NCBI GenBank assembly: GCA_009924895.1
Contig: RFQR01000007.1
Span: forward strand, 1 to 63,710
DNA: 63,710 nucleotides
From: a bacterium
GTDB lineage: Bacteria > Patescibacteriota > Minisyncoccia > Phycocordibacterales > UBA2100
Reading direction: 5' to 3'
The position numbers were made by a program, and so were the translations under genes. Below, one piece after another: positions 23,807-63,710 of this stretch (positions are counted from its first letter, which is position 1; the number at the start of each line of letters is the position of its first letter). Under the pieces are notes generated by a model that saw nothing but the letters and a program-made list of their open reading frames with translations, ran no database searches and was not told where the DNA came from.

Positions 23807-23877
23807 TGCCGGATCGTCTAATGGTAGGACATCGCCCTTTGGAGGCGAGTATCTTGGTTCGAATCCAAGTCCGGCAA
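23807..23877 (+). tRNA. tRNA-Gln (TTG)
   Basis: Acceptor TGCCGGA/TCCGGCA, anticodon loop CTTTGGA. Confidence 0.95.
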
Positions 23878-24050
23878 CACGAGGAGTGTAACGACGAGAG
23901 TCACCGAAAGAAATGTGTTGAACACATTTCGTCTTGGATTCGAAGCCCGGAGCGATGTTGCGCGAGTACGCGCAACCGCGAGGGCAGGTCCGAGCAAATT
24001 TTTGCCTGACGAGGCAAAAATTATGCAGGGCTAATCCAAGTCCGGCAACA
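23862..24050. mobile_element. Small non-coding insert bounded by an exact 18-bp repeat of the tRNA-Gln 3' end
   Basis: aatccaagtccggcaaca at 23862-23879 and 24033-24050; three internal hairpins; inverted T-arm copy at 23933-23944. Confidence 0.7.
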
Positions 24051-54577: not shown

Positions 54578-55060
54578 GTGGGTTTGTCAAACAACACTAT
54601 AGAGCGCATTTTGAACGGTGCGCGCTCTCTGTTCGAGCGCTAGGTTCAACACCACAATCTCATCGATCGTCCGGGTGCTTCGCTGTGCCTTGCTGATGAA
54701 AAAGGCCGCCCACGACTCACTGTTGTTATTGGGTGCCCACCGGATGAGAAGTACGATCGGTATGTCTCATTCAGTCAAGAAAAAGCGCGACGCCTTGCGA
54801 ATCATGCAATGGTAGGAAAGCATGTGAGCAGCTGGCAATCACGCAATCCAGAGATTGACCGCTACGGCGGTGCCATCTGGCTGCGCAACTACGGCGCCGC
54901 GCTCTCGCTCTCGGGCCTTCCCGAACTACACGATAAAGCGTTCGCCGCTTCTCTTGCATTTTTCGGTGAGCTGATTGAGTTTGAGTATGTCCTTTCGATC
55001 AGGGATGCGAGCGATAATTATTTCATCCTTCCTTCGATCTCATCCCTCGAGACGGCCTGA
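54578..55060 (+). pseudogene. Orphan gene with in-frame TAG at 54641-54643
   Basis: GGAG SD + GTG 54578, 21 codons, TAG, then open frame to TGA 55060 (EKARRL..SSWQSR..YGGAI..SGLPE). Confidence 0.65.
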
Positions 55061-55120
55061 GGATACCGGGACCGCAAGCGCTGCTTGTGGTCCACACTTT
55101 TTTGTTGCACCATATTTACT

Positions 55121-55993
55121 ATGAAGAAAACAGCCTTGTTTTTGCTTGTGATTATAGCTCCGTTGTTTACGAGTGCCGCTTCTGCCTCAGATCTTTCAAT
55201 CACTCGTGAGGGTAGTTTTAATGCAAAAAATCTGGTAGTGATTCAAAAAGCAGGAACGAATATCTTTGCACGTGCGGTGTGGGGAGATTCGTTTATTCGC
55301 ATTACGCTTCTTACAAGCACGTCAACAAAAGTGGAGAAGGCATACGGAGAAAGCGCACGCGTCGACGATATTTCTGAGGGTGATACGCTCGATGTTGACG
55401 GTGTCCTTGCAAATGGTGCGGGAACCATCATCGTGAAGGCGCAGACAATAAAAGATTATGCACTCGTCAGAGACAGAAAAGTGCTCTCAGGTACCGTACT
55501 CGATACCAACACCAATGCATTTGTATTCACACTGCTTGGTAAGAATAAAGCGACCACGACGGTACAGCTTTCTGCTTCGACCATGATAACCAAGGGTAAG
55601 CGGACTATAGAATTTTCTGATATCCGTGTCGGAGATAGAATAAACATGGTCGAGGGCATGTACGACTACCCTACAAACACGCTGACGGTCTCAAAAATCG
55701 ATATCTATCAAGACCAAAAGATATTTGCGCCGCGCGTCTTTGAAGGAATACTTCTCTCGACTTCTTCATCACTGCCTGCGACCATAATGCTTGCGATAGG
55801 TACGAAAGGCATGAAGGAGTATCATGAGTACGCTGTGTATCTTTCTGGCGATACTGTTGTATACAATAAAGCAAAAAAGAAGACCGAACTATCACGCTTC
55901 GTAGTGGGGGATACGGTAAGAATCTTTGGCGCCATCCGTCTTACTAATTTGAACGAGATTGATGCAGAAGTTATACGAACGATGGCTTTTTAA
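55121..55993 (+). CDS. Secreted protein with three OB-fold/DUF5666-like repeats
   Basis: Signal peptide; repeated DI..GD.(L/I/V).V.G motif. Confidence 0.7.
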   Translation: MKKTALFLLVIIAPLFTSAASASDLSITREGSFNAKNLVVIQKAGTNIFARAVWGDSFIRITLLTSTSTKVEKAYGESARVDDISEGDTLDVDGVLANGAGTIIVKAQTIKDYALVRDRKVLSGTVLDTNTNAFVFTLLGKNKATTTVQLSASTMITKGKRTIEFSDIRVGDRINMVEGMYDYPTNTLTVSKIDIYQDQKIFAPRVFEGILLSTSSSLPATIMLAIGTKGMKEYHEYAVYLSGDTVVYNKAKKKTELSRFVVGDTVRIFGAIRLTNLNEIDAEVIRTMAF

Positions 55994-56006
55994 TTCCATA
56001 CAATCT

Positions 56007-56444
56007 ATGCCCATTCCCAAAGCAATCATAGGTAGTGCGCTCGTGCTCTTTCTCCTTGCCGGAGGCACATTGTTCTATGGATTTATTGCTGCACCGACAG
56101 AACAATCGAAACTTGAAACACCGAATTCAAACCGTGCCGAGTCTATCCCGCCAAAGAACTCCGACCGCGTTTCTTCACCCGTGCCATCGCCCGCAACACC
56201 AAAACCAGCGGGCCTTACTCTGAGTGCCGTTGCACAGCATAATTCTGCAGAGAGCTGCTACACCGTGATTAATGGTGTTGTATACGATGTGACATCGTTC
56301 ATCAGTAAGCATCCGGGCGGTCCGCAGCGTATTTTGCGATTATGCGGCGTTGACGGCACCGAGCGTTTTGAAAACCAGCATGGCGGTGAGACGAGGCCAG
56401 AGTCGCTGCTTGCAGCACTCAAGGTGGGGGTTCTTGCGCGCTAG
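56007..56444 (+). CDS. Cytochrome b5-like protein, membrane anchored
   Basis: VAQHN..CYTVINGVVYDVT..HPGG..FENQHG. Confidence 0.9.
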   Translation: MPIPKAIIGSALVLFLLAGGTLFYGFIAAPTEQSKLETPNSNRAESIPPKNSDRVSSPVPSPATPKPAGLTLSAVAQHNSAESCYTVINGVVYDVTSFISKHPGGPQRILRLCGVDGTERFENQHGGETRPESLLAALKVGVLAR

Positions 56445-56447
56445 AGT

Positions 56448-56858
56448 ATGGTGACAGTGCACCTCATCGCGCTTTCGTTCGTGTTTCTCACGATGGTTAT
56501 TTCTGACATACAGGCGGTTCAATGGTTTTTTGGAAAAAAGCAGGTTCTTTCTGAAGAGCATCTGCGTCGCTCGCACTACGCTATGTGGGCCGGTCTTATC
56601 GCGATGATCGTTTCAGGCATGTTTCTTGCCTATCCAGAGGCGGACTATCTCCTCCATAATGTCTATTTTATTGCAAAACTTTTGTTCGTCGCAACTCTTA
56701 TCGTGAATGCCGTTCTCATTGGTCGTATCATGCATATCGCAACAACGACCCCGTTTGCCACGCTTTCATCGCACGAAAAAATAGTACTGCTTTCATCGGG
56801 TGCTATGTCGCTTGTCAGCTGGATAGCGGCAGCGAGCATCGGTTTTTTTGTGCTCTAA
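56448..56858 (+). CDS. Hypothetical 4-TM membrane protein
   Basis: Hydrophobic, coupled to the b5 gene. Confidence 0.7.
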   Translation: MVTVHLIALSFVFLTMVISDIQAVQWFFGKKQVLSEEHLRRSHYAMWAGLIAMIVSGMFLAYPEADYLLHNVYFIAKLLFVATLIVNAVLIGRIMHIATTTPFATLSSHEKIVLLSSGAMSLVSWIAAASIGFFVL

Positions 56859-56879
56859 ACGTGTGATACTATATACGAC

Positions 56880-58436
56880 ATGCTCGAGGCATTTCGACAC
56901 GCTGCCCACGCCGTACTACTCATGATTCGCACACGGCTGTTTGTATCATCAGTGTTCATCATTGTGCTCGGGGTAGGATGGTGGTATTTCTTGGGGTCAG
57001 AAAAGAGCGTCCCGATGCAGACTCTCACGGTTACGAAGGGTGATTTCGTGACACAAGTCACGGTATCGGGAAAAGTAAAATCCGCCTCCCAAGTTGACCT
57101 CGGGTTTGCACAAGCAGGAAGAGTAACGGGTGTCTATACTTCTGTCGGAAATAGTGTCTCTGCTGGAGCTCTCTTGGCGCAAGTGGAGAACGATGATCTG
57201 CGCGCCCTTGTTGAGCAACGACAAGCCGTTCTTGCAAATCAGCGTGCCAAGCTCCGCTCTCTTGAGGCGGGAACGCGTCCCGAATCAATCGCGGTGACAC
57301 AGTCGCAGCTCGAGAGTGCAAAAACCGCATATGCGGAAAGTACGATAGCGCTTCAAAACGCTCTTGCAGATGCCTACACGACATCAGATGCTGCAGTCCA
57401 TAACGTCGTCGATCTGTTTGTAAGTAATCCACGATCAGAATTTCCCCAGATCGTATTTCAAACTTCCGATTTACAGATGACCTCTGACTTTGTTGCGGCG
57501 CGCGTGAAGGCAGAGAGTATGCTTTCGCAGTGGTCAAATACGGTGAGCACGACTCCAGCTGCCGTTACTGAAAATATAAACCAAATCGTACGATTGCTTG
57601 AAATGGCAAACGCGGTCTTAAATCGCGGTATTTCGAATCAGTCGACTCCTCAGAGCAGCATTAATGCATTGGTGACTTCTGTCTCTGCTGCTCGCACGAG
57701 CGTTAACGGTGCGCTCAGCACCCTCACCGCAGCAATGACTGCCGAGAAAAGTGCTGCAAATGCGGTTGTCACCGCTCAAAACAACTTAAAGCTCGCACAA
57801 GCTGGTGCAACACAAGCAGATCTCGACGCGCAGCGCGCGCAGGTGCAAAGTGCGCAGGCTGATGTTGATTCGGCACGGGCACAGCTCGCACGCACTCTTA
57901 TCACTGCACCATTTTCAGGAACAGTAACGAAAGTGGACGCCAAGCGCGGGCAAATCGCTTCCACCAATGTTCCGCTTATCTCCATGATGAGCCGCGGCGT
58001 ATTTGAAATAGAAGTTTATGTGCCTGAGCTCTCTATCGCAAAAGTAAAAGTGGGGAATACGGCGACCGTAACGCTCGATGCTCTTCCTGACGCGCAATTT
58101 GAGGCGAAAGTCATTTCCATAGACCCGGCGGAAACGGTGCGTGATGGCGTGGCATCATACAAAGTCACACTTGAATTTAGTGAAAATAATGCGCGCCTCA
58201 AATCAGGCCTTACCACCGACGTAACAATTACAACCGAGCGGCGCTCTGATGTGCTGCTTATCCCCGAAGGCGCCGTGACAGAAAAAGATGGTGATATGGC
58301 GGTCGTGATTTCTCGTCCCGATGCTACGAGCGAAGAAAGAAAAGTGGTGACGGGAGAAGTTTCCTCTACCGGCCTCATTGAAATTATTTCCGGACTCTCA
58401 GTCGGCGACTTGGTTCTTGTTCCGTCACAAAAGTAG
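56880..58436 (+). CDS. MacA/HlyD-like adaptor
   Basis: VTVSGKV, VDLGF..GRV, ITAPFSGTV, LKSGLT. Confidence 0.9.
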   Translation: MLEAFRHAAHAVLLMIRTRLFVSSVFIIVLGVGWWYFLGSEKSVPMQTLTVTKGDFVTQVTVSGKVKSASQVDLGFAQAGRVTGVYTSVGNSVSAGALLAQVENDDLRALVEQRQAVLANQRAKLRSLEAGTRPESIAVTQSQLESAKTAYAESTIALQNALADAYTTSDAAVHNVVDLFVSNPRSEFPQIVFQTSDLQMTSDFVAARVKAESMLSQWSNTVSTTPAAVTENINQIVRLLEMANAVLNRGISNQSTPQSSINALVTSVSAARTSVNGALSTLTAAMTAEKSAANAVVTAQNNLKLAQAGATQADLDAQRAQVQSAQADVDSARAQLARTLITAPFSGTVTKVDAKRGQIASTNVPLISMMSRGVFEIEVYVPELSIAKVKVGNTATVTLDALPDAQFEAKVISIDPAETVRDGVASYKVTLEFSENNARLKSGLTTDVTITTERRSDVLLIPEGAVTEKDGDMAVVISRPDATSEERKVVTGEVSSTGLIEIISGLSVGDLVLVPSQK

Positions 58437-58546
58437 CATATGCCCAGCCCAAATTTTCTCCAGTCGAAAGTAGTCTCGAGATATTTTTTTTCTACACAAG
58501 GACAGTGCGCCATTATTGATTTACCGAACCTAGATTAGAGCTGGGT

Positions 58547-59803
58547 ATGGCACTCAGTAACGATGTGCGCATTGGGTTCTTTTTAGCCCTCCGTCAGCTT
58601 CGTCGCTCGTCTCTATGGACGACGGGACTCATTGTGTTTGTGATGGTGCTCACATTTTTGAATCTTGTTGTCGTTTCAGGTCTTTTGGTGGGTCTCATTC
58701 AGGGGGCAGTCCAGCAGCTGCGTGTGCAGTACACTGGTGACGTCATTATTTCTCCGCTTTCTGATAAGACGTATATCGAAAATACGCCGTCAGTCTTGGC
58801 AACGCTCTCGACCATTTCTACGATTAAAGCATTCTCATCGCGTTACACAGACCGCGCCACGCTCGAAGCAGATTATTTGAATCGCCGTGAAGGGGAAAAG
58901 CGCGACACGGCAAGCGGCCAGGTCTACGGCATCGACCCTGCCGCGGAGAATAAAACCACCAATCTTGGAAAGTTTTTAAAGGATGGCGCATATTTGAAGC
59001 CTGATGATTTTGATCAGATTTTAATTGGGTATTTTCTGCTTAAAAAGTATCTTCCATTTGATGACAGTCCAAACTTTACTGCACTCAAAAAGGCCGACGT
59101 TGGCGAAAAGGTACGGGTGACTATCAACGGGCAAACACGCGAGATGACCATAAAAGGAATTTTGGGCAGCAAGGTCGATAATATTCGACAAGGCATTTTT
59201 ATGACGGACACGCAGCTTCGTGCTCTGTCTGGTAGAAGTGATAACAACGTGGGGGCAATTGCAATTCATGTAGCGGATGGCGTCGATCCGCTCTCGGTTC
59301 GTAAAGACATTACGCTTCGAGGTGTGGGGAAGTACGCAAAAGTACAAACATTTGAAGAGGCACAGCCCCAAGGTTTCAAAGATATTGTAAAGACATTTTC
59401 GATGCTCGGAGCATTTTTCAGCGCATTTGGTCTCATTGTCGCTGCGATTACCATCTTCATTGTCATCTTCATTAATGCTCTCACGCGCCGCAAGTTTATC
59501 GGTATTTTGAAAGGTATCGGCATCAGCGGGCACGCAATTGAAATTGCGTATGTGTTTCAGTCAGTGTTTTATGCAATTATCGGTTCGGGAATTGGGCTTA
59601 TCGTTGTATACGGACTTTTGGTGCCCTATTTCACAGCACATCCGATAAACTTTCCATTTTCTGACGGCATCCTTTATGCACCATTTAACACAACCTTCTT
59701 TCGTGTGGGACTTCTTGTTGTGGCGACACTTGTTGCGGGATATCTACCTGCTCGCATGATTGTTCGAAAAAATACGCTTGATTCGATCTTAGGACGTAAC
59801 TAA
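58547..59803 (+). CDS. MacB/FtsX-family ABC permease
   Basis: N-terminal TM, large extracellular loop, RRKFIGILKGIG. Confidence 0.9.
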   Translation: MALSNDVRIGFFLALRQLRRSSLWTTGLIVFVMVLTFLNLVVVSGLLVGLIQGAVQQLRVQYTGDVIISPLSDKTYIENTPSVLATLSTISTIKAFSSRYTDRATLEADYLNRREGEKRDTASGQVYGIDPAAENKTTNLGKFLKDGAYLKPDDFDQILIGYFLLKKYLPFDDSPNFTALKKADVGEKVRVTINGQTREMTIKGILGSKVDNIRQGIFMTDTQLRALSGRSDNNVGAIAIHVADGVDPLSVRKDITLRGVGKYAKVQTFEEAQPQGFKDIVKTFSMLGAFFSAFGLIVAAITIFIVIFINALTRRKFIGILKGIGISGHAIEIAYVFQSVFYAIIGSGIGLIVVYGLLVPYFTAHPINFPFSDGILYAPFNTTFFRVGLLVVATLVAGYLPARMIVRKNTLDSILGRN

Positions 59804-59805
59804 TT

Positions 59806-60083
59806 TACCCGCCTAAATTTTATGCACTACGTCTATGTACTCCACAGTAAGAAGGATAAACAACTGTATGTTGGTTGTACCAATAATCTCAAAAAGAGAT
59901 TTACCTTGCATAACGCTGGAAAAGTCCTTTCGACGAGGTTGCGGACCCCGCTCACACTTGCTCACTATGAAGCTTTTATAAGCGAGAAAGACGCTTTTCT
60001 TCGTGAGAAGTGGCTAAAAACAGGATGGGGTCGCAACCAACTCCGGACGATGTTACCAGAATCTCTTAAAATTTTGGCGGGTA
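59806..60083. mobile_element. Putative GIY-YIG element with 17-bp terminal inverted repeats
   Basis: TACCCGCCTAAATTTTA (59806-59822) and TAAAATTTTGGCGGGTA (60067-60083), 1 mismatch. Confidence 0.7.
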
Positions 60084-60088
60084 TATGA
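59822..60088 (+). CDS. Small GIY-YIG nuclease
   Basis: YVYVL..LYVGCTNNLKKRFTLHN..HYEAF..A..REKWLK. Confidence 0.92.
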   Translation: MHYVYVLHSKKDKQLYVGCTNNLKKRFTLHNAGKVLSTRLRTPLTLAHYEAFISEKDAFLREKWLKTGWGRNQLRTMLPESLKILAGI

Positions 60089-60747
60089 TCACCGTAAAAA
60101 ATCTTAAGCGAAGTTTCAAAGATGGTGAGCGTACCATCGATGTTTTGAAAGGCATTGATCTCACAGTTAAAAAAGGTGAGTACATTGCCATCATGGGCCG
60201 TTCAGGCGCAGGAAAATCTACGCTCTTGTATCAAATATCGCTTCTCGACGACCCGACTAGTGGTGAGATAGTAATCGACGGAAAAAATACTCACGACATG
60301 ACGACGTACGAAAAAACTCAATTTCGATTGAATACGCTGGGGTACGTGTTTCAAGATTACGCACTTTTGCCCGAGCTTACCGCACTTGAAAACGTTGCGT
60401 TACCACTTCTGATGCAAGGACTCTCAAAACAAGAGGCCTATGGAAAGGCGCAAAAGTCACTCGAGCGAGTAAATCTGGGCCACCGTCTCGGTAACTTGCC
60501 ATCAAAGCTCTCGGGTGGAGAACAGCAGCGCGTCTCTATTTCGCGGGCAATTGCCCATGATCCGGTCATTCTCTTTGCTGATGAGCCAACCGCAAATCTT
60601 GATAACGAGTCGTCACGTCTCGTTATGGATATCTTTGATGAACTGCACAAGAAAGGACAAACAATTGTGTTGGTGACTCACGAAGAAGACTTTGGAAAAC
60701 GCGCAAACCGAATTGTAAAAATTGATGATGGAAAAATAGTCGTATAG
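60085..60747 (+). CDS. ABC ATPase (LolD/MacB-like)
   Basis: [26 protein letters not shown]. Confidence 0.95.
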
Positions 60748-60806
60748 TTGACCGGTGCATTGTGGTGCGGTAGCTTTTAAAAAGTCTTCAAGAATGGGAG
60801 TGAGCC

Positions 60807-61325
60807 ATGGAAGAAATTATCAGTGCGTTTTGGTTCTTTTTGCCTGCATTTGTAGCAAATCAGTGCCCTGGATTTGCGAGGTGGGCTGGGATACCCCCTG
60901 TCACTATAAGCCGACGGCTTCTTGGCGGACACAAAACAATTGACGCGTATCTTGTTGGTTTTGTCGGGGCGTATATTGCTGTTGATTTTCAGCAAAGTCT
61001 TCATAGTTTTAATACGCGTCACAATGTACTTTTTGCAGACACCACTGAACAGAAAGTGTTATATGCATTTTTGTTTGGGTGTGGAGCAGTGGTAGGAGAT
61101 CACCTCAAGTCGTACTTCAAACGGCGAAGAGGAATCCCGCCGGGTTCACCGTGGTGGCCTTATGACCAACTTGATTTTGCGGTGGCAGCTTTGATCGCAA
61201 TCCTTCCGTTCTCGGGATGGATAGGGGTAAACCACATTGTGATTATTCTGGTGGTCTCGGTACTTTTTCACCCGGTGGTGAACTGGGTGGGATGGAAAGT
61301 CGGAATAAGAAAGACTTGGAAATAA
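60807..61325 (+). CDS. CDP-archaeol synthase (CarS/DUF46)-family protein
   Basis: LPAFVAN, LGGHKT, GD..KSYFKRR.GIPPG.PW..YDQLDF. Confidence 0.8.
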   Translation: MEEIISAFWFFLPAFVANQCPGFARWAGIPPVTISRRLLGGHKTIDAYLVGFVGAYIAVDFQQSLHSFNTRHNVLFADTTEQKVLYAFLFGCGAVVGDHLKSYFKRRRGIPPGSPWWPYDQLDFAVAALIAILPFSGWIGVNHIVIILVVSVLFHPVVNWVGWKVGIRKTWK

Positions 61326-61328
61326 AAC

Positions 61329-61356
61329 AGGGGTCGGCGCTGGTGCGCCGACCCCT
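61329..61356. terminator. Bidirectional hairpin terminator
   Basis: ggggtcggcgc-tggt-gcgccgacccc between convergent genes. Confidence 0.7.
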
Positions 61357-61365
61357 CTTGTGATG

Positions 61366-62280
61366 TCATATTCCCAGATTGTTCGACAGATACCCTCCAA
61401 TGTGAATCAGCGCTTTTCGCTTTTCTTCAGGATCGGTATGGAGTCCTTGATCTCGACTGACAGCAATACATGGCCTGTCGATGGGGAGAAGTCCGCGCAT
61501 ACAGTAGTCTGCCTCGTCTCTGACATTGTTGAGTACATAACCCTGAACATGTGCACCGAACTCTTCGATAACTGCTCGTATCTTTGCAGTTTGTTTTATG
61601 GGGCTTTCTTCAGGAATACAGACGATGAAGTACAGTGCCTTCTTCAGTGCGTCAACGGTCATAAGCATTCGTCGCGCAAAAAAGTCTGCACGTTGTATGT
61701 ACTCTCCTTTGAGGTATGTAGCAATATCGGGCCACTTGGCACCAAGAGCTGCGAGAGAGATTTTTCCCTTTTTTTGCAGATTAGTCAGACTGTGAGCTGT
61801 AGCGTCAGAATACTTAAGCAGCCTTGTCATGCCGTCTGTTGGCTCGATGTCTAGCACGATGTGCTTTGTTCCGGTCTCGTAGAGATGGGTTCCTAAGGAT
61901 ACGAGCCCGCAGAATTTTTGCAGCATGTGCGTGTCTGAAGGTATGCCAAAGAATGCGTTTGCCATATCGGCGAGCGGAATAAGACCGTGGTCGCTTGGAA
62001 ATTGTTCCAAGTATTTCTTTACCGACATCTTTCGTTTCTTTGCATCTGCAATTGAGATGTAATTGACGGGCTCGATGACACCGACTTTGAGGTGAGGATT
62101 TACTTCTTGAATTGAGTTAAAGGGAATGCTTTCTTTCCCTAAGGTGACACCAACGCTATGCCCACCGTCGGAGTCTAGGATACCAACATGTACTCCCTGC
62201 TGCGCTTTGTGAAGTGCAAGTGCTACGGCATTTGTGGTTTTACCAACTCCGCCTTTGCCAGTAAAGATAGAAACGTACAT
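61366..62280 (-). CDS. ArsA/GET3-family ATPase
   Basis: TGKGGVGKTT, DSDGGHS, LDIEPT, VCIPE, VLNNV. Confidence 0.82.
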   Translation of the reverse strand: MYVSIFTGKGGVGKTTNAVALALHKAQQGVHVGILDSDGGHSVGVTLGKESIPFNSIQEVNPHLKVGVIEPVNYISIADAKKRKMSVKKYLEQFPSDHGLIPLADMANAFFGIPSDTHMLQKFCGLVSLGTHLYETGTKHIVLDIEPTDGMTRLLKYSDATAHSLTNLQKKGKISLAALGAKWPDIATYLKGEYIQRADFFARRMLMTVDALKKALYFIVCIPEESPIKQTAKIRAVIEEFGAHVQGYVLNNVRDEADYCMRGLLPIDRPCIAVSRDQGLHTDPEEKRKALIHIGGYLSNNLGI

Positions 62281-62382
62281 CGTGAGGTTCCTCTCGGTTG
62301 CTATGGACTATCGACATGTATACCTGTTTTACTCGAGAAAAGAAAGCCTGGACACGCTCAGCGCGTTTTGTACAATTACGAC

Positions 62383-62955
62383 ATGAAAACAACTTCTAGA
62401 GGCGTTGCCTCAACATGGGTCATTATTGGAGTTCTTACAGTTATCGTTTTGATGGTAGGCGGAAAGTATAACGGTCTTGTGCGCAGTAATGAAGGCGTTA
62501 CGGCACAGTGGGCACAAGTGGGAACGCAGTACCAGCGTCGTGTCGATTTGATTCCAAACTTGGTTGAGTCAGTAAAAGGCGTGATGAAGCAAGAGCAGAC
62601 CGTCTTTGGCGCACTTGCGCAAGCTCGGGCAAATTACGCAGGAGCGCGCAGTACAGACGAGAAGGCAGCTGCGGCTGGACAAGTAGAGAGTGCGTTTGGG
62701 CGCCTTCTTGCGGTCATGGAAAACTATCCGCAATTGAAATCGGCAGAAAATGTACAGTCACTCATGGCAGAGATTGCCGGGACTGAAAATCGTGTATCGG
62801 TCGAGCGCATGCGCTACAATGAAATCGTACGCGACTTTAATGTGAGTGTAAAAACATTCCCGGGATCGTTGCTCGCATCGTGGTTTGGATTTGCACCACG
62901 CACCATGTTTGAGGCAGAGGTAGGGGCAGATAAAGCACCAAAAGTACAGTTTTAG
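62383..62955 (+). CDS. lemA: LemA family protein
   Basis: QYQRRVDLIPNLV, ENYPQLKS, TENRV..R.RYN. Confidence 0.95.
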   Translation: MKTTSRGVASTWVIIGVLTVIVLMVGGKYNGLVRSNEGVTAQWAQVGTQYQRRVDLIPNLVESVKGVMKQEQTVFGALAQARANYAGARSTDEKAAAAGQVESAFGRLLAVMENYPQLKSAENVQSLMAEIAGTENRVSVERMRYNEIVRDFNVSVKTFPGSLLASWFGFAPRTMFEAEVGADKAPKVQF

Positions 62956-62959
62956 CTAT

Positions 62960-63710
62960 ATGAAGCAACTTCTTGTTGCTATAGTGGGTATACTTACGGG
63001 CGTCGCATTCGTGGCGCCCGCTTCCGCCTTTGAAGTTTCGGCACGACCACAGGGTTTTGTGAATGACTATGCAAGCGTGCTTACCCCGGAAACAATAGCT
63101 TCTCTCGAGAGTACGCTCGTAGTGTTTACAGCAAGTACCTCAAACGAAATCAGCGTAGTGACTGTGCCTGACATGGGAGGGGATTATATTGAACACTACG
63201 CAGTCACACTTGCTCAGAAGTGGGGTGTGGGGGATAAGCAAAAAGACAACGGCATTATGCTGCTTCTTTCGAAAGAGGAGCACGCGATTCGCATTGAAGT
63301 GGGATATGGGCTCGAAGGCGCTGTGCCGGATAGCGTTGCAAACAGAATCATACAGAATGACATGGTTCCGTATCTTAAACAGGGGGATTACGATACTGCA
63401 GTTACAAACGCCGTCACAAGTCTCATAAAAGCGACAAACGGTGAGTACAAAAATAACGTTTCAGTTTCTATGAAAGACATTGAAAGTGCTCTGCCATTTA
63501 TTTTTGTGTTTGGTGCGTTGGCTCTTCAGTGGCTCGGAGCGATATTGGGACGCACCAAGCAGTGGTGGCTTGGTGGTCTTCTTGGTGCAGGACTCGGTGT
63601 TAGTATTAGTACTTTTATTGGATGGTGGCTGATAGGAGGTGCGTTTCTTACGCTGGGACTCACACTCTTCGGGCTTCTCTTTGATTACGTTGTGTCGAGT
63701 ACGGCAGCAC
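62960..63710 (+). CDS. TPM domain protein (3' truncated by the window end)
   Basis: Manual translation: GFVNDYA, KWGVG..KDNGIMLL, RIEVGYGLEG; no stop before the window end. Confidence 0.9.
   Translation, partial: MKQLLVAIVGILTGVAFVAPASAFEVSARPQGFVNDYASVLTPETIASLESTLVVFTASTSNEISVVTVPDMGGDYIEHYAVTLAQKWGVGDKQKDNGIMLLLSKEEHAIRIEVGYGLEGAVPDSVANRIIQNDMVPYLKQGDYDTAVTNAVTSLIKATNGEYKNNVSVSMKDIESALPFIFVFGALALQWLGAILGRTKQWWLGGLLGAGLGVSISTFIGWWLIGGAFLTLGLTLFGLLFDYVVSSTAA

Follow-up and report, generated by a model that had tools for sequence, protein, structure and literature searches.

How does a gene for a small nuclease come to lie between two genes of a transporter operon, and what are the inverted repeats that enclose it? 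This question is raised by a locus on contig RFQR01000007.1 of a member of the Patescibacteriota (candidate phyla radiation, CPR), which was analyzed over 63,710 nt (hereafter the window, meaning this whole stretch of DNA). There, a gene for an 88-amino-acid (aa) GIY-YIG nuclease is situated between the permease and the ATPase gene of an ABC transporter, and an original prediction, made from the sequence alone, had described it as an element with terminal inverted repeats (TIRs). Comparing the locus with its relatives, we consider it probable that the element is an inserted cassette, in which the GIY-YIG gene occupies the loop of a long-range hairpin and the nuclease recognizes the arms of its own hairpin in single-stranded DNA (ssDNA). 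Across the family the arm sequence, the pairing of the arms and one unpaired position were conserved, and gene-less hairpins with the same arms clustered with GIY-YIG genes.

The operon and the element within it are composed of the following features:

56880-58436, forward strand: HlyD-type membrane-fusion protein, first gene of the operon (open reading frame (ORF) and domain search)
58440-58548, forward strand: weak candidate for a degenerate gene-less relative of the hairpin in the HlyD-permease spacer (arms ATG-CCCAGCC-CAAATTTT ... GCTGGG-TATG)
58547-59803, forward strand: FtsX/MacB-type ABC permease, upstream host gene (ORF and domain search)
59803-59822, forward strand: left hairpin arm, ATT-TA-CCCGCC-T-AAATTTT-A (sequence and repeat search)
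59822-60088, forward strand: GIY-YIG nuclease ORF, 88 aa, single domain (ORF and PF01541)
60067-60086, forward strand: right hairpin arm, T-AAAATTT-T-GGCGGG-TA-TAT (sequence and repeat search)
60085-60747, forward strand: ABC ATPase, downstream host gene (ORF and domain search)

The predicted arrangement of an 88-aa GIY-YIG ORF between inverted repeats was confirmed. The permease stop codon (59801-59803) is followed after 2 nt by a 17-nt left arm (TACCCGCCTAAATTTTA, 59806-59822), of which the final A is the first base of the GIY-YIG start codon (59822). The 17-nt right arm (TAAAATTTTGGCGGGTA, 60067-60083) supplies the final seven codons of the ORF and codes for its C-terminal L K I L A G(I), so that both coding roles that had been ascribed to the repeats are borne out by the sequence. 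Of the 17 positions of the two arms, 16 are complementary and one, T59814 versus T60075, is not; in the repeat search the arms reached 20 nt at 90% (59803-59822 and 60067-60086). Each unpaired T adjoins a GC core, which is CCCGCC on the left (59808-59813) and GGCGGG on the right (60076-60081). The right core ends 3 nt 5' of the ATPase start codon (60085), and the latter overlaps with the GIY-YIG stop codon as ATGA. Only one GIY-YIG gene is present in the 63.7-kb window. No transposase gene was seen near the element among the window ORFs, and no Rfam family matched within 55000-63710.

Repeats of this kind could reflect a chance match or the AT-rich composition around a small ORF, as the inner AAATTTT is of low complexity and self-complementary. 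However, none of 3000 shuffles of the flanks matched the observed inverted-repeat score, which was reached by one of 600 random places of equal geometry in the window. The terminal stem was present in the minimum free energy and in the centroid folds, both as DNA (z = -4.6) and as RNA (z = -4.4). Since the shuffles failed and the same arms were found, covarying, in dozens of independent loci (see below), a chance match is excluded, and the probability left to it is negligible.

To describe the element in its relatives, a set of 80 loci with a GIY-YIG homologue was taken from GTDB species genomes. Homologues of the window protein with 55-71% identity were spread over the Patescibacteria, and a profile search (E ≤ 1e-10) gave a family of 3918 clusters at 50% identity. 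In about 50 of the 80 loci the ORF was spanned by a significant inverted repeat, defined as a score above all 50 shuffles. In at least 42 of the 80 the same motif was present on both sides, with TTNA-CCCGCC-N-AAATTTT... in front of the start codon and ...AAAATTT-N-GGCGGG-TNAA at the 3' end, and repeats like those of the window are thus shared by homologous genes. Remoter homologues lacked the arms, and the repeat-bearing copies stood together on one side of the GIY-YIG tree, which is based on 80 columns and poorly resolved. The GIY-YIG gene was the sole gene found inside the arms (more than 160 loci examined). A DDE or HUH transposase with the same ends, which would have made the nuclease gene passive cargo, was encoded between such arms in none of the loci examined. 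The window element is a typical member of this large CPR family; its particularities are a T.T mismatch and a C-terminus that reads through the right arm.

The genes next to the cassette varied from locus to locus. Besides ABC transporter junctions (10 loci), they included nusG, rpsL, rpsO, ndk, dinB, glyA, ileS, nusB, response regulators, tRNAs and others. Copies bearing the GIY-YIG gene were always oriented like the downstream gene, and in 29 of 40 loci the right core was placed -1 to +5 nt from where that gene starts, typically 3-5 nt ahead of the start codon. The distance to the upstream gene ranged from 0 to 254 nt, and the insertion sites shared no sequence beyond the start codon.

Several members of the family showed peculiarities of their own. 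In locus L058 (2950-3290) a GIY-YIG cassette is located at the 3' end of a tRNA gene; the acceptor end of the tRNA makes up its left arm, and the cassette has a 13-nt direct repeat (GTCTCCCGCTCCA) on both sides. In L061, L062, L072, L076 and L083 the ORFs of remoter homologues without arms run directly into tRNA genes. P0246 (655 aa), P0248 (214 aa) and many profile matches of 110-130 aa contain two GIY-YIG stretches or are extended at the N-terminus by about 30-40 residues, which suggests read-through or fusion with neighbouring ORFs. L102 (2992-3453) has the order secE-GIY-nusG-rplK and is a strain variant in which an IS200/IS605-type Y1 transposase gene replaces the secD gene of the others.

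Conservation of the arms was analyzed at the level of base pairing. Arms from the same locus were more complementary to each other than to permuted partners (z = 7.4 for the core, 7.4 for AAATTTT and 7.9 for the inner variable 7 nt; the z-scores are inflated by relatedness among the loci). Matched pairs at the variable arm positions included all four bases, and the outer TTNA/TNAA was conserved without covariation. Loci L018 and L036, which share both neighbouring genes, differ by a compensatory change from C-G to T-A in the core. Position +6, just inside the core, was unpaired in all 34 loci, as A.A in 28, G.A in four, C.A in one and T.T in one, the last being the window; there both mismatch bases deviate from the family norm and the mismatch is still kept. 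Identical arm DNA (AAAAATTTAGGCGGGTAA) is read as ...LKI-stop in proteins of 84 aa and as ...KNLGG-stop in proteins of 87 aa, and since the same DNA is used in two reading frames, it is conserved at the nucleic-acid level. Because the arms covary, keep an obligatory mismatch and stay conserved regardless of the frame, the comparison argues for a folded hairpin that is recognized by a protein and not for classical double-stranded TIRs, a class to which the element had originally been assigned and for which no support was obtained.

The question whether the segment had been inserted was addressed with the nearest operon relatives. The best matches of the permease had 63-64% aa identity, with no closer relative. 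The three nearest relatives possess the same HlyD-permease-ATPase operon with permease-ATPase junctions of 1, 9 and 15 nt, which contain neither the arms nor a GIY-YIG gene. Relative to these operons, the whole of 59803-60086 (about 278-284 bp) was inserted, both arms included, and the short junctions lacking repeat and gene indicate that the arms came with the gene and were not pre-existing host sequence. The gene positions and the relatives' junctions thereby confirmed that the element splits the permease from its ATPase, and an empty site, here a junction of 1-15 nt, was found in relatives.

The original prediction had further proposed a duplicated TA target, from the observation that deletion of the element with one TA retained gives TAA-TTTAT-ATG. 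This is correct as arithmetic. Family-wide, however, the bases beside the core form the conserved TTNA and TNAA, and the variable base within them matched between the two sides of a locus at 0.15. Therefore, the TA...TA of the window is an extension of the arms within these conserved ends and not a demonstrable target duplication, for which no support was obtained. The empty sites of the relatives are too diverged for base-by-base alignment with the filled site. Two gene-less copies have TATG on both sides.

Arms of the same type were also found without the gene. They enclosed about 100 nt of non-coding DNA in L004, L036, L071, L034, L041 and L022/42/44/46. Among the GTDB loci they also formed palindromes of 31-35 nt whose arms enclose a few bases, in tandem in L021; taking both sizes together, gene-less forms were seen in L004, L021, L023, L034, L036, L041 and L071. 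A pattern with exact arms and a loop of 1-61 nt detected compact hairpins in 83 metagenome stretches, with sizes clustering at 30-38 and 58-88 nt. A GIY-YIG homologue was also encoded in about 20 of 80 compact-hairpin loci, in several directly adjoining the hairpin, which is far more than expected from one or a few GIY-YIG genes per genome of about 1 Mb. Unlike the copies bearing the gene, 69 of 82 compact hairpins were located away from start codons, and their orientation relative to the downstream gene was balanced (21 versus 20), which weakens a purely translational-control reading of the arms. The idea that the GIY-YIG element is the partner of short palindromes thus holds in so far as gene-less palindromes with the same arms exist in other genomes; the hairpin that had been named as an example, in the tRNA-Gln region of the window, is unrelated (see below).

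Some gene-less hairpins were arranged in unusual ways. Compact hairpins of 35 nt formed tandem arrays of three to four right before a start codon (L021, 5190-5320; L129, L155), and in L138 (10835-10907) one hairpin is nested inside another of opposite (T.T) polarity. In a subclade (L022, L042, L044, L046) with proteins ending in ...DMNPPKLSNK, the ORF enters the left arm of a gene-less hairpin of about 100 nt, and the ATG of the following gene takes its A from the right arm of this hairpin; ATGAA stands on both sides as a direct repeat.

The GIY-YIG protein itself consists of one domain (PF01541, E=6e-13, residues 1-66, no other domain), which was also predicted by the AlphaFold (AF2) model (pLDDT 89). 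Nineteen positions were invariant among 33 homologues, including Y5, Y16, R26, H30 and E62, and Y5, Y16 and E62 correspond to Y6, Y17 and E64 of SsnA. The best solved-structure matches of the model were UPF0213 BH0048 and the nuclease domain of SLX1, which is a structure-specific nuclease. Similarity to UPF0213 proteins was 38-41%, and the homing-endonuclease model TIGR01453 scored 19.8 bits against a cut-off of 56. For close pairs of homologues dN/dS was 0.09-0.13. As judged from these sequences, the ORF was shown to be an intact domain under purifying selection, which argues that the enzyme is maintained.

The closest published counterpart of the cassette is found in the Ssn nucleases and their NTS/SRM hairpin repeats (SsnA of Neisseria meningitidis, CDD cd10448; Chenal et al. 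2025, PMC11893778). Ssn proteins are single-domain GIY-YIG nucleases of 94 aa, whose binding to the NTS/SRM hairpin requires ssDNA and which cleave a few bases 5' of this hairpin; they can do without the loop and do not cut dsDNA or RNA (PMC11893778). Most ssn genes have their own hairpins on either side, an NTS-ssnA-NTS layout that was called insertion sequence (IS)-like by the authors, and Neisseria Ssn limits transformation by repeat-bearing DNA (PMC11893778). In both systems a GIY-YIG protein of one domain and about 90 aa, with identical spacing of the catalytic Tyr/Tyr/Glu, is encoded between hairpin-forming repeats with GC cores, and both have dispersed gene-less repeat copies. An SRM-flanked member from Azospirillum lipoferum (plasmid AZO_p3, 255396-255904; L194) is likewise wedged into an operon, where its neighbours are sufB and sufC, and four exact CGTCATCCCCGCGAAGGCGGGGATCCAG NTS/SRM motifs flank it in two inverted pairs. 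Its 97-aa protein is 37% identical to the window protein (hhalign probability 98.0, E=1.8e-13), with Y8, Y19 and E66 aligning with Y5, Y16 and E62. Insertion into an operon therefore occurs in the published Ssn family, too. In contrast to the Ssn system, each flank of a CPR gene is half a hairpin, and the halves pair across the gene, which then lies in the loop; the CPR arms carry an obligatory mismatch, and the copies bearing the gene abut the next start codon. In sequence, UPF0213 and Ssn are equally near to the CPR family. CPR hosts are absent from PMC11893778. We found no paper on CPR bacteria that describes hairpin-enclosed GIY-YIG genes; GIY-YIG ORFs were reported in CPR rRNA insertions (PMC11270868) and GIY-YIG was mentioned among transferred genes (PMC12455944). 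The CPR cassettes look like an apparently undescribed variant of Ssn-type nuclease/hairpin systems, not like literal members of them.

Other known systems share some traits with the cassette. In IS200/IS605 elements and REP/RAYT systems, ssDNA hairpins are recognized, irregular stem bases serve as specificity marks, classical TIR chemistry is absent and one small protein is accompanied by dispersed gene-less hairpins. Their proteins, however, are HUH (Y1) transposases with a separate subterminal hairpin at each end, whereas the CPR element encodes a GIY-YIG protein inside one long-range hairpin. Integron attC sites are also imperfect palindromes that act as folded single strands and in which unpaired bases set the strand choice, but attC follows the cassette ORF instead of enclosing it and the tyrosine integrase is encoded elsewhere. 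UPF0213 proteins (B. subtilis YazA, E. coli YhbQ, BH0048) and the SLX1 domain are the best solved or annotated matches in sequence and structure. UPF0213 genes have a conserved housekeeping context without hairpin arms, in contrast to the variable, repeat-enclosed context of the window family, and SLX1 has extra domains and a partner. A classical TIR transposon or IS would resemble the window element in its 20-nt terminal inverted repeats at 90%, but double-strand binding of TIRs does not predict covarying arms with a kept mismatch. Moreover, the sole ORF is GIY-YIG, with no DDE, DEDD, HUH, Ser or Tyr transposase in the element, and the element has a single copy within the 63.7-kb window and was fixed in all contigs and runs examined.

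Translation starts in the window were also inspected. A Shine-Dalgarno (SD)-like motif (GGAG/GAGG/AGGA at -22 to -4) preceded only seven of 49 long ORFs, and many genes had a TATAAT/TATACT-like box 6-10 nt ahead of the ATG, which suggests that the mRNAs are mostly leaderless. The right arm as an SD site was considered and rejected for this organism.

How the cassette might work can be outlined by analogy with the Ssn nucleases, which bind an ssDNA hairpin repeat and cut just 5' of it. CPR bacteria rely on DNA uptake. The 88-aa nuclease would recognize the arms around its own gene once these have folded in ssDNA, for instance on the lagging-strand template or in DNA that has been taken up, and the +6 mismatch together with the conserved TTNA flank would determine the strand and the site of cleavage. 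It would then be this interaction of nuclease and hairpin, and not binding to double-stranded TIRs, that maintains the architecture and that over evolutionary time spread the cassette and its gene-less derivatives. Read-through of the right arm and the ATGA overlap with the ATPase gene plausibly keep permease, nuclease and ATPase translationally coupled in an organism poor in SD sites. Going further, the unit of about 280 bp could be an autonomous mobile element that moves by hairpin-guided ssDNA cleavage at its own folded ends, with the gene-less hairpins of 30-100 nt as its non-autonomous derivatives; we put this forward as a tentative possibility.

A number of observations weigh against a nuclease that acts on its own hairpin or that spreads with it. 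All 13-14 contigs with the exact GIY-YIG or ATPase protein carried the element, and contigs from four independent metagenome runs (lake, freshwater, groundwater) were identical, without joints or variants. Copies in the nusG and rpsL contexts were likewise fixed, as found by exact-protein look-ups of their neighbours; look-ups of the GIY-YIG protein, the ATPase and the rpsL and nusG neighbours gave filled sites only, with no filled/empty polymorphism within a species. In a tree test the six copies at permease-ATPase junctions were compatible with a common origin (p-AU 0.52, on the poorly resolved tree), and some sharing of sites may therefore be vertical. No second clear arm copy was found in the 63.7-kb window, unlike in SRM-rich Ssn genomes, and the SRM consensus HGTCWY...RNCYNB had no match on either window strand, where the same script found four in the Azospirillum locus. 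UPF0213 YazA was as close to the window protein as the Azospirillum Ssn (hhalign probability 98.2, E=5e-14). The window has T.T where 28 of 34 loci have A.A, and its polarity relative to the gene is thus atypical. Finally, G.T (9) and A.C (6) mismatches on the sense strand did not differ significantly, and folding as RNA or one strand is indistinguishable on this count from folding as DNA on either strand. Phage carriage was rare, with one match in 2.9 million viral contigs, and none of the RNA runs searched contained the element-bearing stretch. Being fixed and under strong purifying selection, the gene could equally belong to a selfish element of long standing, dependent on its nuclease, or serve a domesticated function. 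As to the claim of an unusual minimal mobile unit, a close published analogue exists in Ssn with its flanking hairpins (PMC11893778), and the copy is fixed in all contigs of the species.

The stem could instead be a cis-acting RNA structure, which pairs the ends of the GIY-YIG mRNA segment and throttles translation of the nuclease, preserves coupling or serves as a processing site; the nuclease would then be a domesticated host enzyme of the UPF0213 or Ssn type that no longer moves itself, or never did. The stem folds as RNA, too, its left arm lies over the GIY-YIG start codon and its right arm over the junction with the next gene, the copies bearing the gene are always co-oriented with and abut a downstream start, and selection on the protein is strongly purifying, with the copies fixed within species, all of which this explanation would accommodate. 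It agrees less well with the compact hairpins, which have the same arms and mostly lie away from start codons, in either orientation and sometimes in tandem or nested. An obligatory mismatch is more typical of a fold recognized by a protein than of a plain stem, SD sequestration is unneeded where SD sites are rare, and the unit occurs in many unrelated contexts although the nearest relatives lack it. We therefore regard regulation by an RNA stem as unlikely to account for the arms.

Movement could also be provided by a transposase encoded elsewhere, e.g., an HUH enzyme of the IS200/IS605 type, with the GIY-YIG gene as a mere passenger of hairpin elements. Gene-less copies exist, hairpin-dependent HUH transposases are known (cited in PMC11893778), and at one related locus (L102) a Y1_Tnp gene is located about 1 kb away. 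A passenger would hardly be the only gene ever found inside the arms, however, nor be strongly enriched near gene-less hairpins, and a dN/dS of about 0.1 is unexpected for it; in the window no transposase was seen near the element. Passive transport is very unlikely on these grounds. Equally intergenic between conserved genes, with empty sites in relatives, are free-standing homing endonucleases such as T4 Seg, which cut the empty double-stranded site so that repair copies the gene; here the repeats would be incidental or regulatory. GIY-YIG is the classical fold of such enzymes, and a weak TIGR01453 match was obtained, at a score far below the cut-off. But T4 Seg and I-TevI-type enzymes exceed 200 aa, have a DNA-binding domain, cut double-stranded targets and have neither an enclosing inverted repeat nor gene-less derivatives, whereas the window protein has 88 aa without a DNA-binding domain. 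Together with insertion sites that share nothing beyond a start codon, arms that accompany the gene, covary and also exist without it, and copies that remain intact after fixation, this makes homing a highly improbable explanation. Recognition of the folded arms by the nuclease that they enclose thus remains the reading that we prefer.

Should the hairpin around its gene be the substrate of the nuclease, the cassette would be a compact, self-contained pair of nuclease and recognition site from a very large family, with a specificity that differs from that of the published Ssn enzymes and would be useful for ssDNA tools. It would also explain the recurrent small insertions that split operons or precede housekeeping genes in CPR genomes and that mislead gene calling, as ORFs read through the arms or are fused to neighbours. 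If the nuclease mobilizes the cassette as well, GIY-YIG would join the recognized transposase chemistries as a new one, and the unit, if autonomous, would be among the smallest self-contained transposons.

Two further regions of the window were compared with the element. The HlyD-permease spacer (58437-58546) is 110 nt long, where the three nearest relatives have 1-17 nt. CCCAGCC/GCTGGG arms and a directly repeated TATG delimit it, and the right arm abuts the permease ATG. The spacer might be a decayed gene-less hairpin element, but its fold (58440-58548) was not better than that of shuffles (z 0.18).

The second is the tRNA-Gln region (23807-24050), whose insert hairpin (23997-24022) had been suspected of kinship with the element. 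The two have no arm sequence in common, and this relationship was rejected. The 3' end of the tRNA-Gln (AATCCAAGTCCGGCAACA, 23862-23879) is directly repeated at 24033-24050. The 153 nt between the two copies contain an inverted copy of the T-arm (CTTGGATTCGAA, approximately 23933-23945) as well as the 11-bp hairpin, and the region looks as if an insertion at the 3' end of the tRNA had duplicated that end.

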